Of a DNA stretch of 64,000 nucleotides, positions 3,851-64,000 are shown piece after piece. A program made the position numbers and the translations under genes. The notes under the pieces are model-generated. The model saw only the letters and a list, made by a program, of their open reading frames with translations, was not told the origin of the DNA and ran no database searches. The DNA comes from Gemmatimonadales bacterium. GTDB taxonomy: Bacteria; Gemmatimonadota; Gemmatimonadetes; Gemmatimonadales; GWC2-71-9. The stretch is from positions 31,638-95,637 of the forward strand of contig DASSIL010000178.1 in NCBI GenBank assembly GCA_035691925.1, written 5' to 3'. Within the stretch, counting starts at the first letter, position 1. Every line of letters begins with the position of its first letter.

Positions 3851-5506
3851 TCACTTCAGCCTGATCACGCGGCGCGACAGCTCGAGCCCGGGGGCGGTGA
3901 CGCGCAGGAAGTAGATTCCTGCGTCCGCCGGCCGACCGGCATGGGTCCTGCCATCCCAGCGGAGCTGGTGCGCTCCTCCGGCCAGGGCGACGGATCCGAG
4001 ATCGCGCACCGTCCTGCCGGCGACGTCCACCACCGTCTCGCGCACCCGCGCCGGAGAGGGCAGGGCGAAGTCGAGCTGGACGCGATCCGAGAACGGATTC
4101 GGCCACGCTTCGAGACGCGCCGTGGTTCCGTCCGACCCCGGCACCGCCAGCGTCGAGCCGGCGGGACTCACGCGCTGGAGGTAGATGTCGTAGTTCGTGC
4201 CACTGCGGTGATCCTGCCACGCGACGAACGCGCCGCCCGCGCCGTCGGTGGCGATGGTCGGGTATTCCTGGGCACCCGTGGCGGCGCACAGCGGAATGCC
4301 GTCCGCGATCCACTGGGCCGCGCTGGTCGCATCGAGGTGCTGGGCGTAGATGTCGGCGCCGGTGGCGTTGGAGAAGCGGTAGTCGAACCAGGTGATGATC
4401 GAACCATTGCTGCCGTCGGAAACGATCTGGGGCAGGTTCTGATCCTGCGTAGCCGTGCAAACGGCTGCGCCGTTCGTGCCCCACAGCTGTACGCCGTCGT
4501 TCCGCAATCGCTGCACGTAGACGTTGTAGTTCGTGGTGCTGCGGAAGTCCTGCCACACGGCCGTCGCTCCCCCGGTGCCATCGCCCAACAGGTTGGTCAT
4601 GTTGCCGCCTGACGAGAGCAGGACTCCCGTGCTGGTCGGGTTCCACTCCTTGGTCCCGAGCGAGCTCACCCGCTGCGCGTAGCTTCCGCCGCCGCCCCAG
4701 CCGATGATCGCCCCACCGGTGCCATCGGGCACGATCGACAGCCCCATGTTGTTCGCGGTCGTGCTGAGCGGGGTGCGCGACCACGCTCCCACGCCATTCG
4801 ACTTGAAACCCATGGCCCGCACGCCACCGGCGCTGGTGACCCAGGCCAGGACCGCCCCACCGGCTCCGTCGGAGACGATGGCCGGCAGCGTTTCATTGTC
4901 GGTCAGGGTCTCCAGCGCCTGCCCGCCCGGGTTCCACTGCAGAACGCCGGTGGAGCTCACCTTTTGCCCGAAGATGTCGGAGCTCGCGGCATTGTCCTGA
5001 CGCCAGGCCACGAGGATGTCGCCCCCGCCCCCGAAGTCGCGCGCGATGGTCAGCTCGCGCGCCGCGGTCGTCGCGGACGACAGCGTGAGGCCGTCCGCGC
5101 CCCACTGCGGCACCCCCGCGGAGTTGATCCACTGCAACCGCGGCGCGGAGCCCTGGCCGCCGAAGGCGACGTACGCGCCGCCGCCCCCGTCGCCGACAGC
5201 GACGGGATCGTTCACGTCGCCCGTGGTGCACAGCGCGACGCCGTCGAGGGTCCACACCGGCGCTCCCGCGGCGTTCACGCGCTGCGCGTAGCACAGGCCG
5301 CCCGCAGGCGAGCCAGGACGCTCGTCGTGCCAGACCACGACCGCCCCTCCCTGCGCGTCGGAGACGGTGACCGGCCGGAGCTGGTCGCCCGCCGCGGTGC
5401 ACACCGGGACACCATTGGGATCGGCGGCTGCAACGGACGGATGGCAGGCAAACGACGCCGCGATCGCGGCGCAAGCGAGGAGACGGAACGCGGGAGCGCG
5501 GCGCAT
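3851..5506 (-). CDS. Exported 8x-repeat protein (DGxGGAxVxW...YAQR units) with FlgD/T9SS-type-A-like C-terminal domain
   Basis: Start re-set to ATG 5506 (MRRAPAFRLLACAAIAASFA signal). It carries 8 units of about 50 aa, e.g. IVSDGAGGAVLAW, IATDGAGGAFVAWQDHRSGTNYDIYLQRV. The C-terminus reads NPFSDRVQLDFALP...VVDVAGRTVRDL...GIYFLRV...VIRLK. Confidence 0.85.
   Translation of the reverse strand: MRRAPAFRLLACAAIAASFACHPSVAAADPNGVPVCTAAGDQLRPVTVSDAQGGAVVVWHDERPGSPAGGLCYAQRVNAAGAPVWTLDGVALCTTGDVNDPVAVGDGGGGAYVAFGGQGSAPRLQWINSAGVPQWGADGLTLSSATTAARELTIARDFGGGGDILVAWRQDNAASSDIFGQKVSSTGVLQWNPGGQALETLTDNETLPAIVSDGAGGAVLAWVTSAGGVRAMGFKSNGVGAWSRTPLSTTANNMGLSIVPDGTGGAIIGWGGGGSYAQRVSSLGTKEWNPTSTGVLLSSGGNMTNLLGDGTGGATAVWQDFRSTTNYNVYVQRLRNDGVQLWGTNGAAVCTATQDQNLPQIVSDGSNGSIITWFDYRFSNATGADIYAQHLDATSAAQWIADGIPLCAATGAQEYPTIATDGAGGAFVAWQDHRSGTNYDIYLQRVSPAGSTLAVPGSDGTTARLEAWPNPFSDRVQLDFALPSPARVRETVVDVAGRTVRDLGSVALAGGAHQLRWDGRTHAGRPADAGIYFLRVTAPGLELSRRVIRLK
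4118..5392 (-). repeat. Array of 8 protein-level repeats (~50 aa) inside CDS 3851..5506; approximate bounds
   Basis: Periodic recurrence of the D-G-x-G-G-A-x-(V/I)-x-W ... (Y/F)-(A/V/G)-Q-(R/K/H)-(V/I/L) ... W pattern in the translation. Confidence 0.7.
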
Positions 5507-23564: not shown

Positions 23565-23579
23565 GGCAGGCGGCGCGAG

Positions 23580-23864: not shown

Positions 23865-24166
23865 GAATGCCTCTCATCGACCCCTGGGCTCAAGCTTTGG
23901 GGCTCACCGCGGGCCGGGCGCGCCCGCCTGCCACCGAAAGCGTACAGTGTACATGCGCAGGCCCGTTGGAACGCTCCCCGCCCGTCATCCCCGCGGTCCG
24001 CGCTCGACCGCCGATTCGCCACGCTCGTCGTCTGCCCGCGACGCGTCTGGTGCCCATCCACCGCGTGCGCGGCCCGAATCTTCTAATCTCCCCCCGCAGC
24101 CCCCGCGCGCGCGGCGCGTGCACCGCGGCGCTTCGCCAGCTCCATCCGCAGTCGCAGGAGATCATC

Positions 24167-27100: not shown

Positions 27101-27454
27101 GACGACCCCTCGAACCGCTGGACCAAGCCTTCCATCGTGGTGATGAACGAGGGCAACTACTCGGACGCGCACTGCTTCCCGACGGCCTACACCGAGCTCG
27201 GTCTGGGCCAGACGGTGGGCATGCCGGTGCCCGGCACCTGCAGTTCCGTGTGGTGGGAGCGGCTGCAGGACCCGGACCTCGTGTTCGGCATCCCCGAGGT
27301 CGCGATCTACGACATCGCGGGTGACGTGCTGGAGAACAAGCAGCTCGACCCCACCTACCTCGTCGTTCCGGACCCGGCGCAGGAGGCGGCCGGCCACGAC
27401 CAGCAGCTCGAAAAAGCCGTCGAAGTGCTGCTCGACAAGGTGGCGAAGAAATAG
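24167..27454 (+). CDS. Tricorn-protease-like secreted peptidase (TolB-type propellers + PDZ + S41 C-terminal peptidase domain)
   Basis: GTG 24167 is preceded by AGGAG, and the signal is NRSRPLASWFGLVAVLCLFTIPA. N-terminus reads LRYPAISPDGKTIAFEYRGNLWKV..SPDGGKIAFASDR. The C-terminus reads YAHIRGM...DTRFNGGGN and NEGNYSDAHCF, typical of the tricorn/S41 core. Confidence 0.85.
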   Translation: MNRSRPLASWFGLVAVLCLFTIPADSGLTADRALWLRYPAISPDGKTIAFEYRGNLWKVSSEGGVATPLTVGESYNSMPVWSPDGGKIAFASDRNGNLDVYVMPSGGGRATRLTYHSADEIPTSFTPNGKSVLFSASIMHSATSAGFPTAARPELYRVDLDGHMPVQVLTTTALYAVYDHDMKRLLYSDQRGYEMEWRKHDHSSFARDVWIEDVATSKFTRLTGYGYDDRQPVWGADEHSIFYLSEKSGSFNVWTMKLSDPEHPTQLTAHTGGPVRFLSASRAGDLCYAYDGELWVRPAGASDSRRLAVSTEADDAGRAVKPTDVSSQITEFDVSPDGSEVAFIARGEVFVASTEHGDTRRITNTPEQERSVSFSPDGRTLLYAAERGQSWKIFRTDLTDKNEPNFFNATGFKETPVVEGSAEEFQPSFSPDGREIAYLEERTTLKVLDLATGKSRVVLPGKMNYSYEDGDQAYAWSPDGRWLAVQFLSPGRWSNEVGVVSAAGDQKVINITQSGYEDEDPRWSRKGEVLYWRTDRQGLRTQSGNGRESDVYAAYLTHGAWDRYQLDPASYDQLIAKEKESEKDQSGSKDAARDKSARPAQQGPKPAEAVTMDFDHVEDRVARLSFSSSDLGDAALSGDGEDLYFMARYDKGYDLWKYVPRKKEIKQVAAFGAQHSELKLGAKGKKAFVLHDGKLAVVDLDSGKMSPVGLSARMDLDPAQERAYMFEHIWRQTLEKFLDTKMHGVDWQAMKTEYGRFLPYIDNDRDFAELCSEMQGELNASHTGCRYRPTRTDGDETAALGFFPDPRHTGPGIGVLDVLEGGPLQKSGTKIRAGVVITAMDGAPIAAGDNWYRLLNRKAGTPVRLSLFDPHGSARWDETVKPITWAEQSLLLYKRWARANYDQVVKLSGGRLGYAHIRGMSDGPYREVFQDIFGRDTGKDAIVLDTRFNGGGNLDEALTTFLSGRVFMRSVPRGQYLGDDPSNRWTKPSIVVMNEGNYSDAHCFPTAYTELGLGQTVGMPVPGTCSSVWWERLQDPDLVFGIPEVAIYDIAGDVLENKQLDPTYLVVPDPAQEAAGHDQQLEKAVEVLLDKVAKK

Positions 27455-30745: not shown

Positions 30746-30882
30746 GGCCGGAGCCCTCGAAGGGGAGGAGGTGCGAGTCCCGTGGCCCGATGAGGGTAGC
30801 CGAGCCCTGCCCGCACGGCACCCGGTTTCGGCGCCGGGGGCAGAACGGCCTGTCGCTGTCCGGCGGGCGCCCGCGCGCCGGA

Positions 30883-31494
30883 TCACGCGGCGCGCGATGA
30901 CCCGCGCTGGACTCCCCATCCCAGCCAGCACCAGCCCGTCCCCAGCACGGCGTTGCCCGCGATCGCTCCCCATCTCCCGAACGCGGCGCCGAGCGGCGGG
31001 ATCGCGCACAGGCCGGCGATCACGAGCCAGGCGGCGGGCCGTGGCAGGACGTGGGCGCGCAGGGTGGCGAACGCGAGCCCCAGCCAGCCGAGCGTGAAGG
31101 TGGCGAGCGCGATCATGGCGCCGAGATCGTCACGATGCAGCCCACGACCGTCCTCCAGCGCGTTCAGCGCATCGGGGGCCCGCCGGGCGAGGTCGGTGAT
31201 CACGAACACTTCGTTCCATTCCGTCGCCAGCAGCAGGGCGCTGCCCAGCAGCGCGAGCGCGAACGTGACGGCGCCGAACCGTCCCGAGCGCCCAGCTTGC
31301 GCCAGGTGGACCCCGACCGCGCCCAGCAGCAGGCATGCTGCCGCCGCGGCCGAGGCGCCCTGCCGCCACAGGAACACCCACGACGACGCGCTGTGCGCGA
31401 ACGGAACGTGGGCCGGCAGCAGCGGCGTCAAGGTGATGTTGACGAGGATGGTGAGCGCGCCGCCGCAGGCGAGCGCGACACCGGTCCAGCGCAT
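30883..31494 (-). CDS. Integral membrane protein, unknown function
   Basis: 203-aa ORF with about 6 hydrophobic helices (..GALTILVNITLTPLL.., ..AAACLLLGAVGVHL.., ..ALALLGSALLLATEW..). Confidence 0.65.
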   Translation of the reverse strand: MRWTGVALACGGALTILVNITLTPLLPAHVPFAHSASSWVFLWRQGASAAAAACLLLGAVGVHLAQAGRSGRFGAVTFALALLGSALLLATEWNEVFVITDLARRAPDALNALEDGRGLHRDDLGAMIALATFTLGWLGLAFATLRAHVLPRPAAWLVIAGLCAIPPLGAAFGRWGAIAGNAVLGTGWCWLGWGVQRGSSRAA

Positions 31495-31659
31495 GGCAGT
31501 CTTCTCCCGCGACTCGAACGAGGCTCCCGGATCACTCTACGCAACCCGGCAGGCGCCAGTTGCGTGGATGCCGACGCAATCCGGGCTGTTGCGGCAGGCG
31601 GGCGGTTGTTAGGCTTGAAAGACGCATCCCTGCCCGACACCCCCCGGAGACCGCTTGCC

Positions 31660-33186
31660 ATGCGTCGCCTCGTCGCGCTCGCCCTGCTGCTCGCCATCAC
31701 CCTCGGCGCGGGCGCGGTCCCGCGCGCCCGCGCCGCGACGCCGCGGCCGCTCGGCCTTTACGTGCTCGACAACGCCGCCAACCTCAACCCGACGACCCAG
31801 ATGTACCCGTCCAACCTGTTCTCGGACTCGACCTATCTGCGCCACGTCGCCGGGCACGCGATCTTCTGCCCGATCGCGAAGATCGTGGACAGCGTCGCAA
31901 CGTGGGGACAGTTCCACTACCACTGGAGCGTGCTCGACACGCTGGTCCAGCTCGCGCTGACGCACGGCAAGAGCTTCTCGATCGAGCTCGAAACCGGGTT
32001 CGAGAGCTCGAGCGATACCTACCGGCAGGCGCTGCCGGCGGGCTTCAGCGCCACGTGCGGGGGCAACTGCGCGCCGCTGTTCGACGTGTGGGCGACGGGC
32101 GGCTCGGGCGGCAGCTGCACCAGCTCGTACGTGCTGCTGCCGTGGGTGCCGAACGTGCAGCAGTTCTGGAGCGTGACCGCGGAATCGCTGGCCGCGCACC
32201 TGCACGACATCGGCGCCTACGGCGCGCTCACGCTGGTGCACATTCCGGGCGTCAGCGTGTACGACGAGGAGCTGCGGATGCCGACCGGCGCGCCGAGCCC
32301 AAGCCCCTCCGACACGCTGCCGTGCCCCGACGGCCGACCCGCCTATCCCACGGTGATGAGCGACGCCTCGCAGCAGAACTGGCAGACGTACGGCTACTCC
32401 GACTCGGCCGTGATCGCGGGCTTCCGCGCCATCACCTCCGCGTTCGCGCAGTCGTTCCCCGACCGCGTGCTGGGGTTGAGCATGTTCCCGCACGGCTCGG
32501 CGCCGGGCATCGCGTTCCCGAACTTCACCGGCGACTCCGCCGGCTACGTGAGCGCGCAGCTCGTGCGGGCCGCGGCGCAGATCGCCCCCGGGCGCATCCA
32601 GATCCAGTCCGACAACCTGGATTCGGCCGTGATCGTGCCGTCGGTGATCAGCCTGGCGCGCGAGAACGCGGCGTTCATCGGCTGGCAATCGAACAAGCAC
32701 GGCGGGACGGGCGCCGGGTGCGGCGGTGGCGGCGCGAACTCGTGCCTGCCCGACTCGCCGAGCGGGCACTTCTACAACCTGCTGGCCTACGGCGCCGCGC
32801 AAGGCGCGCACTACTTCGAGATCTGGCCGCACGACGTGATCGCCTATCCCGAGGCGGTCGCGGCATCGGATGCGGCGGGGCTCTATTCCAGCGCCGCAGT
32901 CCCGCACGTGCCGCCCGATGCGGTCGCGCTCGAGCTGGCGCAGAACGTCCCCAACCCGTTCGGCCGCCGCACCACGATCCGCTTCGCCCTCGGCCGCGAG
33001 GCGCGCGTGCGGCTCGAGGTGTTCGATCTGGCCGGCCGGCGGGTCGGCGTGCTCGTGAACGGCCCCGAGGGCGCCGGCGAGCACGACGTCGGCTACGACG
33101 CGCTCGGGCTGCCGGACGGCGTGTACGACTACCGGCTCGAAGCCAACGGCGCCACGGTAACGCGCTGGTTCGTGGTGCTGCACTGA
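31660..33186 (+). CDS. Exported protein of unknown catalytic type with FlgD/T9SS-type-A-like C-terminal domain
   Basis: ATG 31660 is preceded by GGAGA, and the signal is MRRLVALALLLAITLGAGAVPRARA. The ~420-aa N-terminal domain is one I do not recognise. The C-terminus reads VPNPFGRRTTIRFAL..LEVFDLAGRRVGVL..GVYDYRL..FVVLH. Confidence 0.8.
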   Translation: MRRLVALALLLAITLGAGAVPRARAATPRPLGLYVLDNAANLNPTTQMYPSNLFSDSTYLRHVAGHAIFCPIAKIVDSVATWGQFHYHWSVLDTLVQLALTHGKSFSIELETGFESSSDTYRQALPAGFSATCGGNCAPLFDVWATGGSGGSCTSSYVLLPWVPNVQQFWSVTAESLAAHLHDIGAYGALTLVHIPGVSVYDEELRMPTGAPSPSPSDTLPCPDGRPAYPTVMSDASQQNWQTYGYSDSAVIAGFRAITSAFAQSFPDRVLGLSMFPHGSAPGIAFPNFTGDSAGYVSAQLVRAAAQIAPGRIQIQSDNLDSAVIVPSVISLARENAAFIGWQSNKHGGTGAGCGGGGANSCLPDSPSGHFYNLLAYGAAQGAHYFEIWPHDVIAYPEAVAASDAAGLYSSAAVPHVPPDAVALELAQNVPNPFGRRTTIRFALGREARVRLEVFDLAGRRVGVLVNGPEGAGEHDVGYDALGLPDGVYDYRLEANGATVTRWFVVLH

Positions 33187-42462: not shown

Positions 42463-42657
42463 CGCCCGCGCGTGGCTGCCAGCCGCGCAGGCGGTTCGCC
42501 GGGGCAAACGAGCGACCTGGGCACGAATTTCGTTTGTCGCGCGAGAACGGCGCTATATCCTTCCCGTGCTGCACGCCTTCCCCCGGACCCTCGGGCCGCG
42601 TTCGCTCCCCGGATCCGACACCTCGGCGCAGCTCCAACCGCAGGGAGAACTTGCCCC

Positions 42658-43572
42658 ATGAGACGTGTCGCCCCGCACGTGTGCTTCTCCGTCGCCATCG
42701 CCCTGGGCGTCTGGGCCTCCAGTTCCACCGCCCAGACGGTCTCCACGTTCGTCGCGGGGCTCACGCGCCCGTGCGGCGTCGCCGGAGGTCCCGCGGGACA
42801 GGTGTTCGTCTGCACCCGCGCGCCGGACGCCAAGGTCTATCGCTACACGCCTCCGAGCCCGCTCGCCACGCTGGTCGCGAGCGGCTTCGTGGATCCCACC
42901 GACGTGAAGGCGGACGCGCTGGGCAACGTGTACGTCGCCGACTATGGCGCGGGGATGGTGTTCCAGCTGCCCCCGTCCGGGCCGCCGGTCGCGCTGGCGG
43001 TGATCGCCAATCCGTACGGCCTCGCCCTCGACAACGCGGGCTTCCTCTACATCAGTGAATCGCTGAATCGCCGCGTGGACCGGGTCCTCACCACCGGCGG
43101 CATTCCCACGATCTACACCAGCGTGCTCGGTGCGCCCACGGACCAGCTCGGGCCGCTGTTCGTCGATCCCGCCGGCACCCTGTACGCGGGCATGCTGACG
43201 GGCACGATCTTCAAGATCGGCCCCGGCGGCTCGCCGATCTCGCCGTTCGCCACGCTGCCGGCGTGCACCGCGATCATCCCGAACGGCGCGGGCGGCTTCT
43301 TCGCGGCCACGGGACCCAACGATGCCATCGATGCAATCGGGGCGTTGGGCGCTCCGATCACGCTGTTCGCGGGCATTCCCGGATCGCCCGGCCACGTGGA
43401 CGGCAGCCTGCTGTCGGCGCAGTTCAACGGCCTGCGCGGCATGGGCGACGTGGGGCCCAACCAGGACATCTACGTGGCCGAGGAGGGCAACGGCGACGTC
43501 CGCGTGATCTCCCAGCTCGCCACCCCCGCGCGCTCCACCACCTGGGGCCGGATCCAGGCGCTGTATCGCTGA
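42658..43572 (+). CDS. Secreted NHL/SMP-30-like beta-propeller protein
   Basis: Start re-set to MRRVAPHVCFSVAIALGVWASSSTA, with GGGAGA upstream. Blade-like units are DALGNVYVADYGAGMVFQL, DNAGFLYISESLNRRVDRV and NQDIYVAEEGNGDVRVI. It lacks the FlgD-like domain and ends ..TTWGRIQALYR. Confidence 0.75.
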   Translation: MRRVAPHVCFSVAIALGVWASSSTAQTVSTFVAGLTRPCGVAGGPAGQVFVCTRAPDAKVYRYTPPSPLATLVASGFVDPTDVKADALGNVYVADYGAGMVFQLPPSGPPVALAVIANPYGLALDNAGFLYISESLNRRVDRVLTTGGIPTIYTSVLGAPTDQLGPLFVDPAGTLYAGMLTGTIFKIGPGGSPISPFATLPACTAIIPNGAGGFFAATGPNDAIDAIGALGAPITLFAGIPGSPGHVDGSLLSAQFNGLRGMGDVGPNQDIYVAEEGNGDVRVISQLATPARSTTWGRIQALYR

Positions 43573-46636: not shown

Positions 46637-49075
46637 ATGCGTCCCCCGCGCCTGCTCGCCTCGATGGCCGTTCCCGCGCTGCTGTGCCTCGCGTCCGTCG
46701 CGCACGCCGCCTGGCCCTACGACCCGACAGTCAATCTGCAGCTCTGCAATGCCGGCAACGAGCAGCGCAACCCCGCCGCGATCTCCGACGGCGCCGGCGG
46801 GGCGATCGTCGTGTGGGAGGATCAGCGGCTGAACGCGAACATCAACATCTTCGCGCAGCGCATCTCGGCCGGCGGGGCTCCGCTGTGGGGCAACCTGGCG
46901 GCCGGCCTCGCGGTGTGCAACGCGACGGGCACCCAACAGCAGCCGGTGATCTGCAGCGATGGCTCGGGCGGCGCGATCGTCGCGTGGGCCGACGACCGTT
47001 CCGGCACCTGGGCGCTGTACGCGCAGCGCATCAGCGCCGCTGGGAGCGCGCAATGGGCGGCGAACGGCGTGTCGATCTCGAGCACGTTGACCGCGCCCAG
47101 CTTCGGGTCCCTCGACTACAACATCGCGACCGACACGCAGGGCGGCGCGTATCTGGCGTGGACGACATCCGCCAACGAATTCCGAATTCAGCGCGTGAAC
47201 GGCTCGGGCACGGCGCTGTTCGCCGCCGGCGGCGTGCTGCTCGACAACACGCACCAGTTCCCGAACGACGTCGGCATCGTTCCCGACGGCTTCGGCGGCG
47301 CGATCGCGTGCTGGTCCGGTTTCTCGGGCTCCTACGACATCCTGGCGCAGCGGGTCAACGCCTCGGGCACGGCGTTGTGGGCGTTCGGCGGCGTGGGCGT
47401 GTGCACCGACCCCGGCAGCCAGCAGGGTCCGCTGCTGGCCTCCGACGGCCAGGGCGGCGCGATCTTCGCGTGGACCGACTCGCGCGCGGTGCCGCCCAAG
47501 GCGTTCGCGCAGCACATCGGTCCGGGCGGCGCCGCGCTATGGACCGGCAACGGCATCCCGATCGAGAGCTCGACGTACAACACGACGCCGCTCGCCATGG
47601 TGGGCGACGGCACGGGCGGCGCGATCGTTGCGTTCGACCAGACCGACATCAACGCCTCGACCACCTCCCTCTACGCGCAGCGCATCAACGATTCGGGGTT
47701 GGTCCAGTGGGGCAGCCTGGGCGAACAGGTGGTGGCGCCCTCGCAGTACCAGAGCAACGGAGAGCTGATCTCCGATGGCGCCGGCGGGGCCGTCCTGGCG
47801 TGGATGGACCGACGCAACGGGAGCTTCGACATCTACGCGCAGCGCCTCAACCCGTCCGGCGGCTTCCTGTGGAGCTTCGACGACGTCGCCGTGTGCACTC
47901 AGCCCGCGGGCCAGAGCCTGCCCGAGGAGGACGGCATGGCTCCCACGCTGGCCCCCGATGGCGGCGGCGGCGCGATCGTGGCGTGGGAGGACTCGCGCAA
48001 CGATGCCGGCGACATCTACGCCCAGCGCGTCGAGCGCTTCGGCCGGCTCGGCAATCCCGAGCCCGTCATCACCAAGGCGAGCGACGTGCTCGCCGACCAG
48101 GGTGGCGAGGTGTCGCTGCAGTGGACGGCCAGCTACCTGGACGTGTCGCCGACGTTCGAGATCGCAGACTATTCGATCTGGCGCGAGGCGCCGGCCGCGG
48201 CCGCACAGGCCGCGCTGCGCTCGGGCGCGCGGCTGCTCGGAGCCGGGGATCCCCGGCCTCGCGACGCGGCGGGCGCCCACCTGATCCGCGCGCTGCCCGG
48301 CGCGAGCGGCACGAGTTACTGGGAGTATCTGGTCTCGGTCCCGGCCCGCGCGCTGCCCGGATACAGCCACGTCACGCCCACCACCACCGACTCCACCGGG
48401 ACCTCGAACCTGCTCACCAGCTTCATGGTCATGGCCGAGGACAACGGCGGGATCCCGTTCTGGGCCTCCGCTCCCGACTCGGGCTACTCGGTGGACAACC
48501 TGCCGCCCGTGGCGCCGGCGCCATTCACGGGCGCTTACCTCGCAGGGGCCACCCATCTGCATTGGGGCGCCAACATGGAACCCGATCTGGCGGGTTACCG
48601 CCTGTACCGGGGCACGACGTCGGGATTCCTGCCCGGCCCCGGCAACCTGATCTCCTCGCAGCCCGACACGGGCTACGCGGACGCCGGCCCGGCCGGCAGC
48701 TACTACAAGCTCTCGGCGGTGGACGTTCATGGCAACGAGAGCGCCTATTCGCTGCTCTCGCCGGCGGCCACGCTGGACGCGGTGCGCGAGGCGCCGCACG
48801 CGCTGACGCTCGCCGCGCCATCTCCCAATCCCGCCCGTGGACACACCGTGATGGCGTTCGGCCTGCCCACGGCCGGAGCCGTTCAGCTCTCCGTGTACGA
48901 CGTGGATGGCCGCCTGGTGCGCACGCTCGTCAGCGGATGGCTCGACGCGGGCCAGTTCTCGATGCCGTTCGACCTGCGGGACGACGCCGGGAGCGCGTTG
49001 CCGGGTGGGCTCTACTTCGCACGCCTGCGGGGCGAGGGACGCACGCTCGTGCGCCGGTTCGCCATCGCGAGATAG
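46637..49075 (+). CDS. Exported 8x-repeat protein (same repeat as 3851..5506) with Ig-like/FN3-like/FlgD-like C-terminal cassette
   Basis: 812 aa, with signal MRPPRLLASMAVPALLCLASVAHA. It carries 8 units such as ISDGAGGAIVVWEDQR..NIFAQRI and ISDGAGGAVLAWMDRRNGSFDIYAQRL. The C-terminal 339 aa are collinear with the cassette of the two NHL proteins and end GGLYFARL..RRFAIAR. Confidence 0.9.
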   Translation: MRPPRLLASMAVPALLCLASVAHAAWPYDPTVNLQLCNAGNEQRNPAAISDGAGGAIVVWEDQRLNANINIFAQRISAGGAPLWGNLAAGLAVCNATGTQQQPVICSDGSGGAIVAWADDRSGTWALYAQRISAAGSAQWAANGVSISSTLTAPSFGSLDYNIATDTQGGAYLAWTTSANEFRIQRVNGSGTALFAAGGVLLDNTHQFPNDVGIVPDGFGGAIACWSGFSGSYDILAQRVNASGTALWAFGGVGVCTDPGSQQGPLLASDGQGGAIFAWTDSRAVPPKAFAQHIGPGGAALWTGNGIPIESSTYNTTPLAMVGDGTGGAIVAFDQTDINASTTSLYAQRINDSGLVQWGSLGEQVVAPSQYQSNGELISDGAGGAVLAWMDRRNGSFDIYAQRLNPSGGFLWSFDDVAVCTQPAGQSLPEEDGMAPTLAPDGGGGAIVAWEDSRNDAGDIYAQRVERFGRLGNPEPVITKASDVLADQGGEVSLQWTASYLDVSPTFEIADYSIWREAPAAAAQAALRSGARLLGAGDPRPRDAAGAHLIRALPGASGTSYWEYLVSVPARALPGYSHVTPTTTDSTGTSNLLTSFMVMAEDNGGIPFWASAPDSGYSVDNLPPVAPAPFTGAYLAGATHLHWGANMEPDLAGYRLYRGTTSGFLPGPGNLISSQPDTGYADAGPAGSYYKLSAVDVHGNESAYSLLSPAATLDAVREAPHALTLAAPSPNPARGHTVMAFGLPTAGAVQLSVYDVDGRLVRTLVSGWLDAGQFSMPFDLRDDAGSALPGGLYFARLRGEGRTLVRRFAIAR
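46748..48055 (+). repeat. Array of 8 protein-level repeats (~52 aa); approximate bounds
   Basis: SDGxGGAI(V/F)AW.D.R....(I/L)(Y/F)AQR(I/V/L)...G...W recurs periodically. Confidence 0.75.
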
Positions 49076-58397: not shown

Positions 58398-58418
58398 ACG
58401 CGTCCCGGACGGGCGCGT
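58398..58418. terminator. Candidate hairpin between convergent genes
   Basis: ACGCGTCC-cggac-GGGCGCGT forms 8 bp including one G-U. It sits between the permease stop (58392) and the ClC stop (58418-58420) and has no U-tract. Confidence 0.35.
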
Positions 58419-60196
58419 CACTCGCGCGAGAACGGACGCCACAGCTCGGGCGCCGGCAGCCGGATCAGGTTCTCGCGGCGCTGCTCGATCTCGAGCTGGC
58501 GCTCGCGCGCCTTCAGCAGATCACTGCGGGTCACGATCCCGATCACGGCATGCGGCGCCTTGTCCGACACCACCGGCAGGCGCCCCACGCCCTCCTTCGC
58601 CATGCGCTCCGCCACCGCGCGGCACGACTCGTCGGGATGCGCCACCACCGGCTCGCGGCCCAGCAGCGAGGCGACCACGATCCGGCCCAGCTCCTCGGGC
58701 GGCGGCAGATCGAGCAGCTCGCTGCGCGTCACCACGCCCACCAGCCGGCCGGACGCGGTGACCACCGGATAGCCCTGATGCCGGCCGAGCCGCGGATCGA
58801 AGTGGCGCGCCTCCAGCTCTGCCACCGGCAGCGTGGCCTGCACGGTCTGCACGGGATGGCTCATCACCTGCGAGACGAGCAGCGTCTCCAGCGGATCGAC
58901 CGAGTACTCGCGCGATAGATGGTGCCCGCGCCGCGCCACCTTCTCGGTGAGGATCGAGCGCGGCATGACGAGCACCGTCACGGCATAAGCGGCCGCGCAC
59001 GCGATCAGCAACGGCAGCAGCGCGTCCACCTGCTGCGTCAGCTCGAGCGCGAACACGACCGCGGTGAGCGGGCAGCGCATCGTGCCGCTGAGGATCGCCG
59101 ACAGCCCGACCAGCGGCCACCAGGCCGCGCCGCCGGCCGGCAGGATCGGCGCCAGCAGCAGGCCGGCGGCGGCGCCCATCATGAGCAGCGGCGCCAGCAC
59201 GCCGCCGCTCGTCCCCGAGCCGAGCGCGATGCTCCAGATCACGGCCTTGACCACCAGCAGCCGCACCATCGGACCCGCGGGCATGGCGCCGCGCACGAGA
59301 TCGCCGATCACGTCGTAGCCGACGCCGAGCGCGCGCGGCTCGATCAGGCCGCCGATGCCGACCGCGAGCCCGCCCAGCGCCGGCCACCACATCCAATGGA
59401 CCGGCAGCCGCTGGAACGCGTCTTCGGCCGCGTACACGGCGCGCGTCAGCAGCGCCGACAGCACACCGCATGCGACCCCGACGCCGACGCATGCGGCCAG
59501 CCCGGCGCCGTCGATGTGCGCGTGCGCGGGCAACGGGAACAGCGGCCCGTGCCCGAGCAGCATCGGGCGCAGCGCCGCGGCCGTGGCGCTGGCCAACGCC
59601 ACCGGGATGAAGCTGCGCGGCTTCCACTCGAACAGCAGCAATTCCACGGCGAGCAGCACCGCCGCCACCGGCGTGGCGAACGTGGCGGACATGCCGCCGG
59701 CCGCGCCGGCGACCAGCAGCGTCTTGCGCTCGGCGGCGCTGAACTGGAACGTCTGCGCGATCAGCGAGCCGACCGCGCCGCCCGTCATGATGATCGGGCC
59801 CTCGGCCCCGAACGGACCGCCCGAGCCGATCGAGATCGCCGACGAAAGCGGCTTCAGCACCGCCAGCTTGGGCTCCATGCGCGAGCGGCCGATCAGAATC
59901 GCCTCGAGCGCCTCGGGGATCCCGTGGCCCCGGATCTTCTCCGAGCCGAACCGCGCCATCAGCCCGATGATCAGCCCGCCGATCACCGGCACCACGATCG
60001 CCCATGGGCCCAGCGTGTGCGCGGCCGGGCGCGCGTCGGCGAACGACAGCCGCTGGAAGAAGAACAGGTTGGTGAACAGCGCGATCAGCCGGAGCAGGGC
60101 GGCGGCCAGGAACGCGCACAGGCCGCCGATCCCGATCCCGAGCACCGACAGCGCCAGCAGCCGGCGGTCGGCGGTGAAGTCGCCGCGAACGGCCAT
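58418..60196 (-). CDS. ClC family chloride channel / H+-Cl- exchanger with C-terminal CBS pair
   Basis: This is only the 3' 1.8 kb of the 5.5-kb track ORF. ATG 60196 is preceded by AAGGAGGG. The ClC motifs are GSGGPFGAEGP, GMSATFATP and GTSGGVLAPLL, followed by two CBS-like units (VMSHPVQTV.., GRLPVVSD..IGIVTRSDLL). Confidence 0.9.
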   Translation of the reverse strand: MAVRGDFTADRRLLALSVLGIGIGGLCAFLAAALLRLIALFTNLFFFQRLSFADARPAAHTLGPWAIVVPVIGGLIIGLMARFGSEKIRGHGIPEALEAILIGRSRMEPKLAVLKPLSSAISIGSGGPFGAEGPIIMTGGAVGSLIAQTFQFSAAERKTLLVAGAAGGMSATFATPVAAVLLAVELLLFEWKPRSFIPVALASATAAALRPMLLGHGPLFPLPAHAHIDGAGLAACVGVGVACGVLSALLTRAVYAAEDAFQRLPVHWMWWPALGGLAVGIGGLIEPRALGVGYDVIGDLVRGAMPAGPMVRLLVVKAVIWSIALGSGTSGGVLAPLLMMGAAAGLLLAPILPAGGAAWWPLVGLSAILSGTMRCPLTAVVFALELTQQVDALLPLLIACAAAYAVTVLVMPRSILTEKVARRGHHLSREYSVDPLETLLVSQVMSHPVQTVQATLPVAELEARHFDPRLGRHQGYPVVTASGRLVGVVTRSELLDLPPPEELGRIVVASLLGREPVVAHPDESCRAVAERMAKEGVGRLPVVSDKAPHAVIGIVTRSDLLKARERQLEIEQRRENLIRLPAPELWRPFSRE

Positions 60197-60241
60197 GGAC
60201 CCTCCTTGGGATGATCCCGCCGCGCGCAGCCGCGGTCGGGC

Positions 60242-60266
60242 GTCCGATGCGACAACTGTATCGGAC
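60242..60266. promoter_or_regulatory. Inverted repeat in the ClC / MarR divergent intergenic region
   Basis: GTCCGAT-N11-ATCGGAC is a perfect 7-bp inverted repeat 18 nt upstream of the MarR ATG (60284), next to an AT-rich TTCGATATATTTCG patch. Confidence 0.4.
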
Positions 60267-60283
60267 TTCGATATATTTCGCAC

Positions 60284-60724
60284 ATGGCCACCCGCACCGC
60301 TCCGTCCGCCGCCGCGCCCGATCTCACCGACGCCGAATACGCCGCGCTGGCCGGATTCCGTGCGCGGCTGCGCTCGTTCCTGCGTTTCACCGAGCGCGAA
60401 GCCGCGCGCGGCGGGCTCACGCCGCAACAGCACCAGCTGCTGCTCGCGATCCGCGCGCATGCCGGCGGCGCGGCGGGCGTCGGCGAGCTGGCGCAGGCGC
60501 TGCAGCTCCGCCATCACACGGTGGTGGGCCTCGTGGACCGCGTCGCCGCGCTCGGGTTCGTCACGCGCCGGGTGGACCCGGCCGATCGCCGGCGCGTGCG
60601 CGTGACCCTCACGCGCGCCGGCCGGCAGGCGCTGGCCCGGCTGTCGCTCGGGCACCGCCGCGAGCTGCACGCGCTGCGCCGCGCGCTCGATCTGGCGCTG
60701 CTGGACGGCCCACGCCGGAGCTGA
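60284..60724 (+). CDS. MarR family transcriptional regulator
   Basis: It reads LTPQQHQLLLAIRAH..GVGELAQALQLRHHTVVGLVDRVAALGFVTRRVDPADRRRVRVTLTRAG. Confidence 0.85.
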   Translation: MATRTAPSAAAPDLTDAEYAALAGFRARLRSFLRFTEREAARGGLTPQQHQLLLAIRAHAGGAAGVGELAQALQLRHHTVVGLVDRVAALGFVTRRVDPADRRRVRVTLTRAGRQALARLSLGHRRELHALRRALDLALLDGPRRS

Positions 60725-60787
60725 CGGCCGAGGCCAGCGGGGGACCGCCGCCCGGGTTTGCGAATCCGGTATCATCACCCCTTCGCG

Positions 60788-63700
60788 ATGCCCCTCTCCC
60801 ATTTCCATCCGGAGGTCGCGCGCTGGTTCCGGGAGCGCGTCGGCGAGCCGTCGGCCCCACAGGCCGAGGGCTGGCCGCGCATCCGCTCCGGCCACCACAC
60901 GCTGATCGCGGCACCGACCGGCACCGGCAAGACGCTGGCGGCGTTCCTGTGGGCGATCGACGGCCTGCTGCGCCAGGGCGCAGCACTCCCCGACGAGACG
61001 CAGGTGCTGTACGTGTCGCCGCTGCGCGCGCTCGGCAACGACGTGCACAAGAACCTGCAGGGTCCGCTGGCCGAGCTCGAGCGGCGCGACCCGACGTTCC
61101 CGCACGTCCGCGTGCAGGTGCGCAGCGGCGACACTCCGGGCCGCGAGCGCACGGCGATGCGCAAGCGCCCGCCGCACATCCTCGTCACCACGCCCGAATC
61201 GCTCGCGATCCTGCTCACCACCGAAGGCGGCCGCGCGATGCTCGCGACCGTGCGCACCGTGATCGTGGACGAGATCCATTCGGTGGCGGGCAGCAAGCGC
61301 GGCGCGCACCTGGCGCTGTCGCTCGAGCGGCTCGAGGCGCTGGTCGAGACCCACGGCCTCTCCCGCGGCCGCCGCGCGGCGCTGCAGCGGATCGGATTGT
61401 CGGCCACGCAGAAGCCGATCGAGGACGTCGGCCACCTGCTGGTGGGCGTGGATCGCGCATGCGAACGCGTCGACGTCGGGCACCGTCGCGATCTGGACCT
61501 CGCGATCGAGCTGCCCGACGGGCCGCTCGAGACCGTGTGCTCGCACGAGACGTGGGAGACGATCGTCAAGCGCATGGCGGAGCTGATCCGTGCGCACCGC
61601 ACCACGCTGGTGTTCGTCAACACCCGCAAGCTCGCCGAGCGCGTGGCGGCGCGGCTGACGGACGCGCTCGGGCCCGAGCACGTGACGAGCCATCATGGCA
61701 GCCTGTCGCGCGAGCGGCGGCTGGACGCCGAGGCCCGGCTCAAGGCCGGCACGCTGCGCGCGCTGGTCGCCACCTCTTCGCTCGAACTGGGCATCGACAT
61801 CGGCGACGTGGACCTCGTGATCCAGGCCGGCGTCACCGCCTCGATCGCCACGCTGCTGCAGCGCGTCGGCCGCAGCGGCCACGCGCTGGCGCGCACGCCG
61901 CGGGGCCGCATCTTCCCGCTCACCGAGGACGACCTCGTCACCGCCACGGCGCTGGTGGACGCGATCCGGCGCGGCGAGCTGGATCGCACGCCGCAGCCCG
62001 GGCAGCCACTCGACATCCTGATGCAGCAGGCGGTGTCCGCGTGCGTGCCCGAGACCTGGGACGAGGGACGGCTGTACGACACGTTCCGGCGCGCGTGGCC
62101 GTATCGCGCGCTCACGCGCGAGGCGTTCGACGGCGCGCTGGCGCTGCTGACCGAGGGCCGGCACGCGCTGCTGCATCGGGACGGCGTGCACGGCCGGCTG
62201 CGCGCGACCAAGCGCGCGCGCATCACCGCGCTCACCGCCGGCGGCGCCATTCCCGACACCGGCCAGTACCGCGTCGAGCTCGAGCCCGACGGCACGCTGG
62301 TCGGCATGCTGGACGAGGACTTCGCGGTCGAATCGAACGGCGGCGACATCTTCCAGCTCGGGAACGCCTCGTGGCGCATCCTGCGCGTCGAGCCCGGGGT
62401 GGTGCGCGTCGCCGACGCGAAAGGCGCGCCGCCGTCGGTGCCGTTCTGGTTCGGCGAGGCCCCGGCGCGCACGAGCGAGCTGTCGGGCGCGATCGCGCGC
62501 ATCCGGGAGCGCGGCCGCGACCGCGACTGGCTGATGCGCGAGGTCGGGCTGTCCGAGGCCGCTGCCACGCAGCTGTCGGAATACCTGCGCGAGGGCGAGC
62601 GCACGCTGGGCGCGATCCCCACTCCCGCGCGCATCGTGCTCGAGCGGTTCTTCGACGAATCCGGCGGCATGCAGCTCGTGGTGCACGCGCCGCTCGGCGG
62701 CCGCATCAATCGCGCGTGGGGGCTCGCGCTGCGCAAGCGGTTCTGCGTCGGGTTCGGGTTCGAGCTGCAGGCGGCGGCCAACGAGGAGGCGATCGTCATC
62801 TCGCTCGGGCCCCAGCACAGCTTCCCGCTGGCGGACGTGTTCGGGTTCCTGAAGCCCGAGAGCGCGCGCGACGTGCTGGTGCAGGCGGTGTTGGGCGCAC
62901 CGATGTTCGGCACGCGCTGGCGCTGGAACGTGACGCGCGCGCTGCTGCTGCCGCGCACGCAGCACGGCGGCCGCCGGGTGCCGACGCCGCTGCTGCGCAT
63001 GCGCGCCGAGGACCTGCTGGTGCGCGCGTTCCCGCAGGTGCTGGCGTGCCCTGAGACGCTGCCGCCGGGCGAGCTGCCGGTGCCGTGGGAACACCCGATG
63101 GTGCGCCAGACGCTGGAGGACTGCCTGACCGAGGCGATGGACGTCGACGGCTTCCTCGCCGTGCTGCGCGACCTGCGCGCCGGGCACATCGAGACGGTGG
63201 CGGTGGACAACGCCACGCCGTCGCGGTTCGCGCAGGGCATCCTGAACGCGATGCCGTACGCGTTCCTCGACGACGCGCCGCTCGAGGAGCGCCGCACGCA
63301 GGCGGTGATGTCGCGCCGCGGGCTCGACGCCAAGGTCGCCGACACGCTGGGGGCGCTCGATCCCGACGCGGTGGCGCGCGTGCGCGACGAGGCGTGGCCG
63401 GAGCCCGAGAACGCCGAGGAGCTGCACGAGGCGCTGCTGTGGATGGGCTACGCCACCGCGCGCGAGGCGGAGGCGTGCGGCTGGCGCGCGGCGCTGGCCG
63501 AGCTGGCCGCCGCGGGCCGCGTGTCGCTCGAGCCGGGCGACGAGGGCGGGCACTGGATGGCGGCCGAGAGCCCGCGCGATCGCGCGAGCGTGGTGCGCGG
63601 GCGGCTCGAGGCGCTGGGTCCGGTGGTGGTGGCGGACGCGTCGGATCGCATGCCCCCGGCGGGCGACCCGGCCCTCGCGGCGCTCGCCACGATGGCCGCG

Positions 63701-64000
63701 GACGAGCTGCCCGCGCTGCTCGAGCTCGAGGCGCGCGGGTTCGTGCTGCGCTGCCGGATCGCGGGGCGCGATGCATGGTGCGAGCGCCGGCTGCTGGCGC
63801 GCATCCACCGCTACACGCTCGAGCGCCTGCGGCGCGAGATCGAGCCCGCCACCGCCGCCGAGCTGTGGCGGTCCATCGCGTGCTGGCAGCACGCCGATCC
63901 CGCGTTCCGGCTGGACGGCCCGCGCGGGGTGCACGAGATCGCGCGCAAGCTGGCGGGGTTCGAGATCCCGGCAGCGGAATGGGAGCAGGGCGTGCTGCGC
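60788..64000 (+). CDS. lhr: Lhr-type large ATP-dependent DEAH-box helicase, 3' end beyond window
   Basis: Own translation; absent from the track because it has no stop in the window. MPLSHFHPEVARWF.. is followed by Walker A AAPTGTGKT, DEIH box VIVDEIHSV, SAT (GLSATQ), HHGSLS and QRVGRSGH. The downstream region is collinear with the Lhr core. It is open to base 64000 in frame. Confidence 0.9.
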   Translation, partial: MPLSHFHPEVARWFRERVGEPSAPQAEGWPRIRSGHHTLIAAPTGTGKTLAAFLWAIDGLLRQGAALPDETQVLYVSPLRALGNDVHKNLQGPLAELERRDPTFPHVRVQVRSGDTPGRERTAMRKRPPHILVTTPESLAILLTTEGGRAMLATVRTVIVDEIHSVAGSKRGAHLALSLERLEALVETHGLSRGRRAALQRIGLSATQKPIEDVGHLLVGVDRACERVDVGHRRDLDLAIELPDGPLETVCSHETWETIVKRMAELIRAHRTTLVFVNTRKLAERVAARLTDALGPEHVTSHHGSLSRERRLDAEARLKAGTLRALVATSSLELGIDIGDVDLVIQAGVTASIATLLQRVGRSGHALARTPRGRIFPLTEDDLVTATALVDAIRRGELDRTPQPGQPLDILMQQAVSACVPETWDEGRLYDTFRRAWPYRALTREAFDGALALLTEGRHALLHRDGVHGRLRATKRARITALTAGGAIPDTGQYRVELEPDGTLVGMLDEDFAVESNGGDIFQLGNASWRILRVEPGVVRVADAKGAPPSVPFWFGEAPARTSELSGAIARIRERGRDRDWLMREVGLSEAAATQLSEYLREGERTLGAIPTPARIVLERFFDESGGMQLVVHAPLGGRINRAWGLALRKRFCVGFGFELQAAANEEAIVISLGPQHSFPLADVFGFLKPESARDVLVQAVLGAPMFGTRWRWNVTRALLLPRTQHGGRRVPTPLLRMRAEDLLVRAFPQVLACPETLPPGELPVPWEHPMVRQTLEDCLTEAMDVDGFLAVLRDLRAGHIETVAVDNATPSRFAQGILNAMPYAFLDDAPLEERRTQAVMSRRGLDAKVADTLGALDPDAVARVRDEAWPEPENAEELHEALLWMGYATAREAEACGWRAALAELAAAGRVSLEPGDEGGHWMAAESPRDRASVVRGRLEALGPVVVADASDRMPPAGDPALAALATMAADELPALLELEARGFVLRCRIAGRDAWCERRLLARIHRYTLERLRREIEPATAAELWRSIACWQHADPAFRLDGPRGVHEIARKLAGFEIPAAEWEQGVLR

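Follow-up and report, generated by a model that had tools for sequence, protein, structure and literature searches.

The 64-kb window, by which we mean the whole stretch of DNA that was analysed (64,000 nucleotides of a Gemmatimonadales contig), encodes two paralogous proteins, here called A and B, that share ~31% identity and are each dominated by an array of eight repeat units. Protein A is 100% identical to the database protein HET7250170.1 (P0001; ‘hypothetical protein VFI79_10015’, from a Gemmatimonadales bacterium MAG). Both open reading frames had been described in a first-pass annotation of the window and exist as described, A at 46637-49075 on the + strand and B at 3851-5506 on the - strand, and both peptides that it quoted as examples are found in protein A. 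The reading frame of B stays open further upstream, to position 5869; we prefer the start at 5506 (MRRAPAFRLLAC...), because a recognizable signal peptide follows only that start. The genes around A, named by eye from their translations, include a MocR-like regulator and PCuAC/SCO1-like genes, and those around B a CPBP protease and a DinB-like gene; judging from these translations, the neighbors look unrelated to A and B. Secreted propeller enzymes are also encoded elsewhere in the window. The features of the two genes are as follows.

46637..49075, + strand: protein A coding sequence (812 aa; open reading frame; GC3 0.90)
46637..46708, + strand: A, predicted Sec signal peptide (residues 1-24, read from the sequence as ...LASVAHA with putative cleavage before AW)
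46709..46726, + strand: A, N-terminal cap motif AWPYDP (family consensus AWPHDP), outside the repeat
46727..46897, + strand: A, blade/unit 1 (residues 31-87)
46898..47062, + strand: A, blade/unit 2 (residues 88-142)
47063..47227, + strand: A, blade/unit 3 (residues 143-197), degenerate, with a TDTQGG core and lacking the D-x-R turn
47228..47386, + strand: A, blade/unit 4 (residues 198-250)
47387..47548, + strand: A, blade/unit 5 (residues 251-304)
47549..47716, + strand: A, blade/unit 6 (residues 305-360)
47717..47878, + strand: A, blade/unit 7 (residues 361-414)
47879..48043, + strand: A, blade/unit 8 (residues 415-469), ending in the unique linker motif ERFGRLGNPEP and not in G..QW
48065..48496, + strand: A, beta-sandwich domain with helical insert (residues 477-620; AF2 secondary structure)
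48509..48772, + strand: A, FN3-like domain (residues 625-712; LHW...GYRLYRG...YKLSAVD.HGNES; beta sandwich in AF2)
48824..49072, + strand: A, C-terminal FlgD-Ig-like / T9SS type-A sorting-type domain (residues 730-812)
3851..5506, - strand: protein B coding sequence (551 aa; GC3 0.84), paralogue of A lacking the stalk domains
5423..5506, - strand: B, predicted signal peptide (residues 1-28, read from the sequence as ...HPSVAAA with putative cleavage before DP)
4151..5416, - strand: B, eight-unit propeller array (residues 31-452; from the units and the unit HMM)
5249-5416, 5096-5248, 4928-5095, 4784-4927, 4640-4783, 4475-4639, 4304-4474 and 4151-4303, - strand: B, blades
3854..4123, - strand: B, C-terminal FlgD-Ig-like / T9SS-type domain (residues 462-551)

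We located the repeats by anchoring each unit on the D of the (S/P/G)DGxGG motif. As the first-pass annotation had claimed, each protein carries eight consecutive units with this core, at a period of 48-61 aa (anchors at residues 51, 108, 166, 217, 270, 324, 380 and 441 of A and at residues 50, 106, 157, 213, 261, 309, 364 and 421 of B), and the ranges it gave, 46748-48055 (residues 38-473 of A) and 4118-5392 (residues 39-463 of B), bracket the arrays. A repeat HMM built from the 16 units, eight from each protein, recovered A at E = 3.5e-157 with eight domains and B at E = 7e-136 with nine domain matches spanning the eight units, a periodicity far beyond chance, and in a six-frame translation of the 64-kb window it found nothing better than E = 0.2 besides A and B. 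What stands of the earlier suggestion of an expanded family in this organism is the presence of two copies in this window. No DNA-level tandem repeat of ~160 bp is present, so the array is ancient and repetitive at the protein level. Across the family the unit is ~54 aa long, with the consensus NGVALCTA...Q..P.I.SDGAGGAIVTW.D.R.G...DIYAQRV.A.G..QW.

The proposal that the array forms an eight-bladed propeller is supported by structure prediction. The AF2 model of the propeller of A alone, the one protein modeled, was computed from a 101-sequence alignment and has a pLDDT of 92.6, a pTM of 0.92 and 32 strands, or 8 x 4; the full-length model (pLDDT 91.3, pTM 0.78) agrees with it. The predicted head of A consists of eight four-stranded antiparallel sheets arranged round a central axis. 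In the signal-peptide region AF2 places a helix at residues 6-17 with low pLDDT, and the family consensus there ends AxA-AWPHDP. W26 in the cap motif is invariant in A1 and A3, and its conservation in A2 is 90% or higher; the motif may have a role in closing the ring. Between the propeller and the C-terminal domain, the beta-sandwich domain of A shows family-wide conservation (DQGG.V.V.W ... YYWEY ... SAPDSGYSVDN), and Pfam contains no model matching its family consensus; the adjoining FN3-like assignment is consistent with a match of family profile positions 631-711 to the FN3 region of PDB 5z06 (E = 3.5e-4).

We compared the predicted fold with known structures using Foldseek. The best PDB matches of the propeller-only model include the repeat-rich seven-bladed bacterial lectins CV39L (6gxs) and, from Photorhabdus, PLL2, PLL3, PLL5 and PHL, together with enzymes: the PL25 ulvan lyase 5uas, the PL42 rhamnose-glucuronate lyase 7esn, the PL24 structure 6byt, the GH145 structures 5mvh and 5mum, the tetrathionate hydrolase 6l8a and S9 peptidase propellers. 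At a TM of ~0.5 and 10-14% identity, these matches to a predicted model reflect generic propeller similarity only. CV39L, PLL and PHL lectins are propellers without enzymatic activity, as is proposed below for A and B; they have seven blades that are highly similar to one another, are soluble and are not known to carry a stalk or a sorting domain. Taking as criteria for this lectin type seven blades, sugar sites between the blades, and sequence or close structural similarity, A and B are not members: the lectins align to the A model over ~400 columns at a query-normalised TM of 0.47-0.51 and 11-14% identity, PDB sequence searches with A and with the family profile returned no match to them, and the likeness lies in a possible mode of action only. 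The second-best Foldseek match of the full-length A model is PorZ of Porphyromonas gingivalis (5m11), and PorZ and PorU (6za2) share with A and B a plan in which a signal peptide is followed by one or more beta-propellers and an Ig-like C-terminal sorting domain, although their propellers are unrelated in sequence to that of A and B. A phmmer search of the PDB with A gave a weak match to the designed propeller nvBagel4 (8prs, E = 0.12) over D.Y.....G...W; we dropped a PQQ-like or designed-propeller link because the family profile fails to recover nvBagel4 and finds only relatives of the C-terminal and FN3 domains.

The first-pass annotation could not assign the repeat to a named family and named a confident HMM match to an existing repeat family as what would refute it; at the level of the family, such a match exists, and this part of the annotation is not supported. 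The NCBIfam model TIGR04275 (beta_prop_Msarc, ‘beta-propeller repeat protein’), a repeat-type model of 40 positions with a curated whole-protein cutoff of 85 bits, matches 57 of 57 homologues (best E = 9.6e-25) in a constant register, with profile positions 2-35 lying on LCTA..Q..P.I.SDGxGGAIV.W.D.R.G...DIY. Homologues with 16 units, or two propellers, exceed the cutoff (P0023, 113.9 bits; P0113, 129.9; P0072, 139.6), and reversed and shuffled versions of P0072 gave no match at E<=1. Single-propeller members typically score 35-66 bits, and A (41.0 bits, E = 1.1e-10) and B (20.2 bits, E = 3.7e-4) also fall below 85 bits, so that under NCBI's cutoff rule neither is a TIGR04275 member. The match is nevertheless significant, consistent in register and not compositional, and at the sequence level the repeat of A and B is a divergent form of the TIGR04275 repeat. 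The comparison was made with the model itself, which spans 40 of the ~54 unit positions, leaves out the AQR...G..QW part and carries no assigned function.

The earlier exclusion of other propeller repeats was supported by Pfam: NHL, Kelch, WD40, PQQ, BNR and FG-GAP gave no match in A or B, in the 57 members (E<=0.01) or in the family consensus (E<=10). SBBP (PF06739) was likewise absent from all of these (E<=10 on the consensus array), as were the PD40/TolB Pfam repeats, and NCBIfam TolB models gave weak E values only, in 3/57 and 1/57 members. As a positive control, the SBBP and NHL models do match other proteins of the window, SBBP the NHL proteins at 16480-19356 and 19353-22160. SBBP, PQQ-like, NHL and the A/B repeat belong to the same fold class, each being a strand-turn repeat with a final aromatic residue. 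The repeat has no Pfam model, and the family is among the larger protein families in that position.

Clustering at 50% identity divides the family into at least 5,757 clusters with E<=1e-30, or 18,309 with E<=1e-3. Its hosts are almost all uncultured, being MAGs of Eisenbacteria, Krumholzibacteriota, Latescibacteria, Ignavibacteriota, Gemmatimonadota and Bacteroidota (mostly FCB group) and some archaea. Unit counts are almost always 8 or 16; across 80 loci nearly all open reading frames carry 8, and two carry 16 and 15. Many genomes hold several divergent paralogues in tandem (55-70% identity), with arrays of three or four at five loci of other genomes (L016, L028, L037, L047 and L048), and giant multi-propeller members reach 5,506 aa. 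What longer homologues add is limited to stalk- or adhesin-like modules (FN3, Big_12, CARDB, CarboxypepD_reg or beta-helix) and the C-terminal sorting domain, with no catalytic domain found among them, and the 80 loci revealed no conserved gene neighbor other than further family members and their shadow ORFs. Literature searches on TIGR04275/SBBP, PDIAV, eight-bladed propellers and Eisenbacteria/FlgD/propellers returned nothing on this repeat family; one paper on eight-bladed design was set aside as irrelevant since it uses WD40 templates. This is a large uncharacterised family whose repeat is already catalogued, as TIGR04275, and not a new kind of protein, and A, B and their relatives demonstrate no new biological principle.

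Both ends of A and B point to export. Signal peptides are visible by eye in both sequences, and the C-terminal domain of each passes the gathering cutoff of FlgD_ig (PF13860, 27 bits), with 28.6 bits for A (residues 745-793) and 36.9 bits for B (residues 475-538); 54/57 homologues match the same model. Against TIGR04183, the T9SS type A C-terminal sorting domain, A lies just above the 23-bit cutoff (23.4) and B just below it (21.7), with matches in 53/57 homologues at E<=0.01, and against PF18962 both fall under the 27-bit cutoff (16.9 and 14.6). Set beside PorZ and PorU, the tail of A and B thus scores better as FlgD_ig than as Por_Secre_tail. In the PDB the family profile finds FlgD (7eh9 at E = 5e-7, also 7bhq and 3osv) and the C-terminal region of PorU (6za2, E = 0.011). 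Domains of the FlgD-Ig-like type serve as T9SS type A sorting and anchoring signals in the FCB superphylum. By analogy, the tail would be a putative T9SS signal in Gemmatimonadota, and the sequences are consistent with crossing of the outer membrane by a T9SS-like route followed by display on the cell surface. According to PMC11285876, Gemmatimonadetes and other FCB phyla may have a T9SS; none of its core genes occurs among the ORFs scanned in the 64-kb window.

By sequence, all eight blades are equivalent. The per-blade consensus lines are identical for the eight blades, with no blade-specific conserved column, and identity between different proteins is as high for different blades (0.53) as for the same blade (0.54). 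In every blade ~13 of the unit's 55 positions vary and the remainder are fixed. Because the same conserved residues recur in all eight blades and none is a blade's own, the propeller probably presents at most eight equivalent sites, or one symmetric face.

We propose, with a confidence only a little better than even, that A and B are putative Sec-exported, surface-displayed, non-enzymatic binding heads that are probably multivalent. Each protein would leave the cytoplasm through the Sec pathway by means of its N-terminal signal peptide, and its FlgD-Ig-like C-terminus would then act in sorting and anchoring, taking it across the outer membrane to the surface, where the eight-bladed head of A, with four strands per blade, would be raised on a stalk of beta-sandwich and FN3-like domains. 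The propeller would serve as a non-catalytic binding module, like a multivalent propeller lectin or adhesin, and its equivalent sites, eight at most, or its single symmetric face would engage a repetitive ligand, for example a polysaccharide or the surface of another cell. In favor of a non-enzymatic head we count, besides the equivalence of the blades, the absence of catalytic domains from longer homologues and of recurring neighbors from the 80 loci, and the presence of CV39L, PLL2/3/5 and PHL lectins among the best Foldseek matches. The structural matches, drawn from a predicted model, count against a lectin-like reading too, since they are generic and place enzymes (PL25, PL42, GH145, S9 peptidases) beside the lectins, and the conservation shared by all blades might have structural reasons alone, as it does in the WD40 repeat, and would then carry no information on binding.

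Several other readings have to be weighed against a binding head. A window of 70.6% G+C, crowded with long spurious ORFs in all frames, might suggest that the periodicity is a by-product of Gly/Ala-rich composition and that the ORFs are not real genes, but this reading is already refuted and we give it virtually no credence: the A and B frames have a GC3 of 0.84-0.90 with normal GC2, thousands of homologues exist, some of them in MAGs of low GC from Ignavibacteriota and Bacteroidota, AF2 predicts the fold with confidence, and the TIGR04275 match is lost in the shuffled and reversed controls. We regard it as quite improbable that the propeller is a secreted enzyme, for example of polysaccharide lyase or glycosidase type, degrading a polymer at an active site in the central channel. 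The structural matches to 5uas, 7esn, 6byt, 5mvh/5mum, 6l8a and the S9 peptidase propellers lend it some support, as does the company of other secreted propeller enzymes in the same window; however, those matches are generic (TM ~0.5, <=14% identity), no blade has a conserved residue of its own from which one asymmetric active site could be built, the Pfam and NCBIfam models of catalytic domains, CAZy-type and peptidase ones included, do not match the propeller, and no operon partner (SusC/D or a transporter, for instance) is conserved across the 80 loci.

The recurrence of every conserved position in each blade, which is what one would expect of structural residues, also suits a surface protein whose role is architectural only, for instance as a coat, a spacer or an S-layer-like element, with the propeller as a rigid block in which those residues serve only folding and blade packing, and so do the extreme abundance of the family, its giant proteins of up to 5,506 aa and the stalk-like FN3/Ig modules alongside the propeller. 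We nevertheless consider such a role unlikely, given that many genomes carry divergent tandem paralogues (55-70% identity), which fit diversified specificities better than one structural coat, though the findings do not divide it sharply from a binding head. The same paralogues raise the prospect of a diversified recognition repertoire, in which a rigid eight-fold scaffold with ~13 hypervariable loop positions per blade would recognize prey, phage, host or kin, with the paralogue arrays supplying many specificities. The variable positions found in every blade among otherwise fixed ones and the tandem arrays of three or four paralogues at the five loci named above agree with this idea, as do dN/dS values between tandem paralogues of ~0.4-2.6 at variable and 0.1-0.3 at conserved positions; but most pairs are saturated in dS, the positions were picked for their variability, and a dN/dS near 1 therefore fits a plain lack of constraint equally well; moreover, no diversity-generating retroelement or recombination system lies beside the genes at the 80 loci. 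We hold this account to be doubtful, and we are similarly skeptical of its broadest form, in which the family would be a very large, previously unrecognised surface-recognition repertoire of uncultured FCB-group bacteria and some archaea, a natural scaffold of almost perfect eight-fold symmetry with a few hypervariable loop positions per blade diversified among tandem paralogues to yield many binding specificities. As for the binding head that we favor, its strict eight-blade count and the full equivalence of its blades place the propeller beside designed symmetric propellers as their natural counterpart and make it a candidate for multivalent binding at the surface.

The more immediate consequence of these findings concerns annotation. 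Single-propeller members miss the whole-protein cutoff of TIGR04275, which is the sole curated model, and are left as ‘hypothetical’, as A is because the proteins of this window score under it, or receive wrong names where weak matches to unrelated Pfam families add up. A model at domain level, covering either the whole 54-aa unit or the eight-blade domain, would mend the annotation of thousands of proteins. Another NCBIfam model, NF053835 (‘PDIAV motif-containing lipoprotein’, a 458-position equivalog about as long as a signal peptide plus eight units), matches at least one unit in 27/57 homologues (best E = 6e-10), all of them sub-threshold at 18-39 bits against a cutoff of 90, with no match to A at E<=1 and one to B at E = 0.097 only. 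Lipoprotein_15 (PF03640; COG4315, ‘Yx(FWY)xxD lipoprotein’, a 47-aa repeat) matches 19/57 members at E<=0.01 and neither A nor B at E<=1; P0005, P0022 and the consensus score above its gathering threshold over the whole protein, although in P0005 and P0022 no single stretch passes E = 1e-4 and the consensus has two stretches only (E<=10). We judged the matches to Lipoprotein_15, DUF1491, Mtf2_C and DUF4114 to be sums of weak repeat matches, and the Lipoprotein_15 match is the likely source of the name that P0023 carries at JGI.

Proteins A and B are encoded on opposite strands of a window with 70.6% G+C, in which long ORFs occur in every frame, and both reading frames show the codon-position bias typical of real genes (GC3 0.90 for A, 0.84 for B):

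46637-49075, plus strand: protein A, 812 aa
3851-5506, minus strand: protein B, 551 aa

The frame of B is open to position 5869, and the Met at 5506 is the start that is followed by a signal peptide. A database protein identical to A, HET7250170.1, comes from a Gemmatimonadales MAG. With the Asp of the (S/P/G)DGxGG core as anchor, eight units were delimited in A and eight in B, spaced 48–61 residues apart, and a profile HMM built from these 16 units and run on the six-frame translation of the window recovered A (E = 3.5e-157, 8 domains) and B (E = 7e-136), with no third match better than E 0.2. The first-pass annotation, which had described eight consecutive regular units in both proteins, is thus borne out at the coordinates that it gave, and the two example peptides that it quoted are both present in A. 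A and B are ~31% identical, and no tandem repeat of unit length was found at the DNA level, which points to an old array whose maintenance acts on the protein. A compositional artefact was excluded as the source of the periodicity. Within the signal-peptide coding region of A, Tandem Repeats Finder reported a 28-bp unit (46645-46698, 2.0 copies, 78% matches), probably a chance feature of GC-rich sequence.

Pfam detected only a C-terminal FlgD_ig domain in A and B. The Pfam models SBBP, PQQ, NHL, Kelch, WD40, FG-GAP and BNR found no match in 57 family members or the consensus array (E ≤ 10), and the repeat models were working, since SBBP and NHL strongly matched two other window proteins in the same run. 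The earlier exclusion of NHL, Kelch, WD40, PQQ, BNR and FG-GAP therefore holds, but the accompanying statement that the repeat could not be assigned to a named family does not: TIGR04275 (NCBIfam 'beta_prop_Msarc', whose product name is 'beta-propeller repeat protein'), a repeat model of 40 positions with its cutoff set at 85 bits, matches at family level, the kind of match to an existing repeat family that the annotation had itself set against its statement. A (41 bits, E = 1e-10) and B (20 bits) score below the cutoff, as eight divergent units cannot reach this whole-protein threshold. All 57 homologues were matched (best E = 9.6e-25) in a constant register, profile positions 2-35 aligning with LCTA..Q..P.I.SDGxGGAIV.W.D.R.G...DIY, and the cutoff was exceeded in the two-propeller, 16-unit homologues P0023 (113.9 bits), P0113 (129.9 bits) and P0072 (139.6 bits in 10 stretches), while P0072 reversed or shuffled in 54-residue windows gave no match at E ≤ 1. 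Taken together, these sequence comparisons identify the repeat as a divergent TIGR04275-type repeat, and A and B as sub-threshold members of an already catalogued family.

Other names appearing on the family were the Pfam entries Lipoprotein_15, DUF1491, Mtf2_C and DUF4114. Lipoprotein_15 (PF03640) passed its whole-protein gathering score in homologues P0005 and P0022 with no single stretch passing E 1e-4, and found only two stretches of the family consensus (E ≤ 10); PF07372 (DUF1491) and PF14061 (Mtf2_C) likewise exceeded gathering scores among P0005, P0022 and P0023, again with no stretch passing E 1e-4. We treat all these as sums of weak repeat matches, which likely lie behind the JGI name of P0023, 'predicted lipoprotein with Yx(FWY)xxD motif'. 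The curated model NF053835 ('PDIAV motif-containing lipoprotein') gave sub-threshold matches in 27 of the 57 members.

The family is very large, and correcting its annotation is one useful outcome of this analysis. A word-indexed search returned >7,850 clusters at 90% identity, named only 'hypothetical', 'T9SS type A sorting domain-containing protein' or 'FlgD Ig-like', and exhaustive phmmer searching of the A propeller against 1.84 billion cluster representatives returned 18,309 matches at E ≤ 1e-3, 12,383 at 1e-10 and 5,757 at 1e-30, among them giant proteins, the longest of 5,506 aa and the richest with 19 matched stretches. The 15-19 matched stretches in P0121 (4506 aa), P0122 (4286 aa) and P0123 (5506 aa) indicate several propellers per chain. 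Relatives are encoded in >527 stretches of species-representative genomes, from which we took 80 loci, mostly of Eisenbacteria, Krumholzibacteriota, Latescibacteria, Ignavibacteriota, Bacteroidota and Calditrichia MAGs, with scattered bins labelled Brocadia, Chloroflexota, Planctomycetota and Promethearchaeota. Members in bins far from the FCB group, Promethearchaeota CR_4 (L052, L055) and Candidatus Brocadia (L010, L019, L066), could reflect mis-binning or lateral transfer. Across the 80 loci, ORFs almost always carried 8 units (two had 16 and 15), tandem arrays of 2-4 paralogues were common, and no gene family recurred beside the propeller genes. This TIGR04275-type propeller family is without a Pfam model, solved structure, literature or known function.

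We modelled A at full length (pLDDT 91.3, pTM 0.78) and as the propeller alone (residues 22-480; pLDDT 92.6, pTM 0.92), each with an alignment of ~100 homologues. The 32 strands of the propeller model fall into eight groups of four, as the eight-bladed propeller suggested in the first-pass annotation would require. The model of A comprises:

N-terminal part: signal-peptide helix
strands within residues 34-465: propeller
residues 477-620: beta-sandwich domain with a helical insert
residues ~625-712: FN3-like domain
residues 737-810: C-terminal beta sandwich

Two conserved elements lie outside the repeats: an AWPHDP motif at the N-terminus, in which W26 does not vary in family alignments A1 and A3 and reaches at least 90% conservation in A2, and ERFG.LGNPEP after blade 8; we infer that they seal the propeller ring.

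A blade alignment of 800 units from 100 proteins showed conserved positions alike in every blade (nGValCtA...Q..P.i.sDGaGGAIvtW.D.R.G...DIYAQRv.a.G..qW), the variable positions being alike too, and no column conserved in one blade only. Between proteins, core identity was 0.54 for the same blade and 0.53 for different blades; within one protein, it was 0.56 for different blades. The blades therefore lack individuality, making this a natural case of a propeller that is strictly eight-fold and whose blades are equivalent.

The composite reading towards which we lean, if only slightly, is that export takes A and B to the surface, where they are displayed, and that the propeller is a non-catalytic putative binding head, which would act like a propeller lectin or adhesin and, the blades being equivalent, would probably be multivalent. 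Within this reading, structure and export stand on much firmer ground than binding. Both proteins have a signal peptide followed by a predicted eight-bladed TIGR04275-type propeller, with stalk domains in A, and a FlgD-Ig-like C-terminal domain that scores above the Pfam threshold in both and at the TIGR04183 cutoff. C-terminal Ig-like domains of this type send cargo, in the FCB superphylum, via the type IX secretion system onto the cell surface. Gemmatimonadetes are regarded as likely to have this system (PMC11285876). The additional modules of longer homologues are FN3, Big_12, CARDB, CarboxypepD_reg or beta-helix, followed by a FlgD_ig or Por_Secre_tail end; no catalytic domain was found in them.

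PDB sequences gave no match to the propeller, even with the family profile, all matches falling in C-terminal parts (FlgD, the C-terminal region of PorU and an FN3 region). Foldseek matched the propeller model to PDB propellers (TM ~0.45-0.52 on the query, 10-14% identity), led by lectins (CV39L, Photorhabdus PLL and PHL) and enzymes (polysaccharide lyases PL25, PL42 and PL24, GH145 and S9 peptidase propellers), a generic propeller likeness in both cases. That the propeller is itself an enzyme appears very unlikely, as blade equivalence argues against a single asymmetric active site. The same equivalence is compatible with conservation for purely structural reasons as well as with eight functional sites that are equivalent, and we give a small probability to A and B being a purely architectural coat or spacer protein. 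A diversified recognition repertoire has a similarly low probability: dN/dS among tandem paralogues was ~0.4-2.6 at family-variable positions versus 0.1-0.3 at conserved positions, but dS is saturated, so these values cannot tell diversifying selection apart from a lack of constraint.

The window also encodes:

10013-13165, minus strand: Sortilin/Vps10 match with BNR/Asp-box repeats, ~1050 aa, with a very weak FlgD_ig match
14062-16434, minus strand: fusion of a lactonase/SGL-type beta-propeller (N-terminal half) and a PF04185 phosphoesterase-family domain (residues 451-708)
16480-19356 and 19353-22160, both minus strand: adjacent NHL proteins, ~958 and 935 aa, 10-11 NHL repeats each
23489-27451, plus strand: tricorn-like protease with PD40 repeats, Tricorn_C1, Tricorn PDZ and Peptidase_S41 domains
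28283-31129, minus strand: third FlgD_ig-tailed protein, 948 aa, its body with only a weak DUF5122 propeller match
30901-33183, plus strand: ORF of 761 aa overlapping the preceding gene, no Pfam match
42463-43572, plus strand: small secreted protein (GNVYVADYGAGMVFQL and similar), by eye of NHL or SMP-30-type propeller look
60725-63997, plus strand, running off the window end: Lhr-type large helicase (DEAD, Helicase_C, WH_Lhr, DEAD_assoc)

The adjacent NHL proteins, which have SGL and SBBP co-matches and a weak Por_Secre_tail match at both C-termini, represent secreted NHL propellers encoded in tandem. The ORF at 30901-33183 may owe its high GC3 to shadowing of the gene at 28283-31129 on the minus strand, and a long high-GC3 shadow ORF (58418-64000) lies opposite the helicase.
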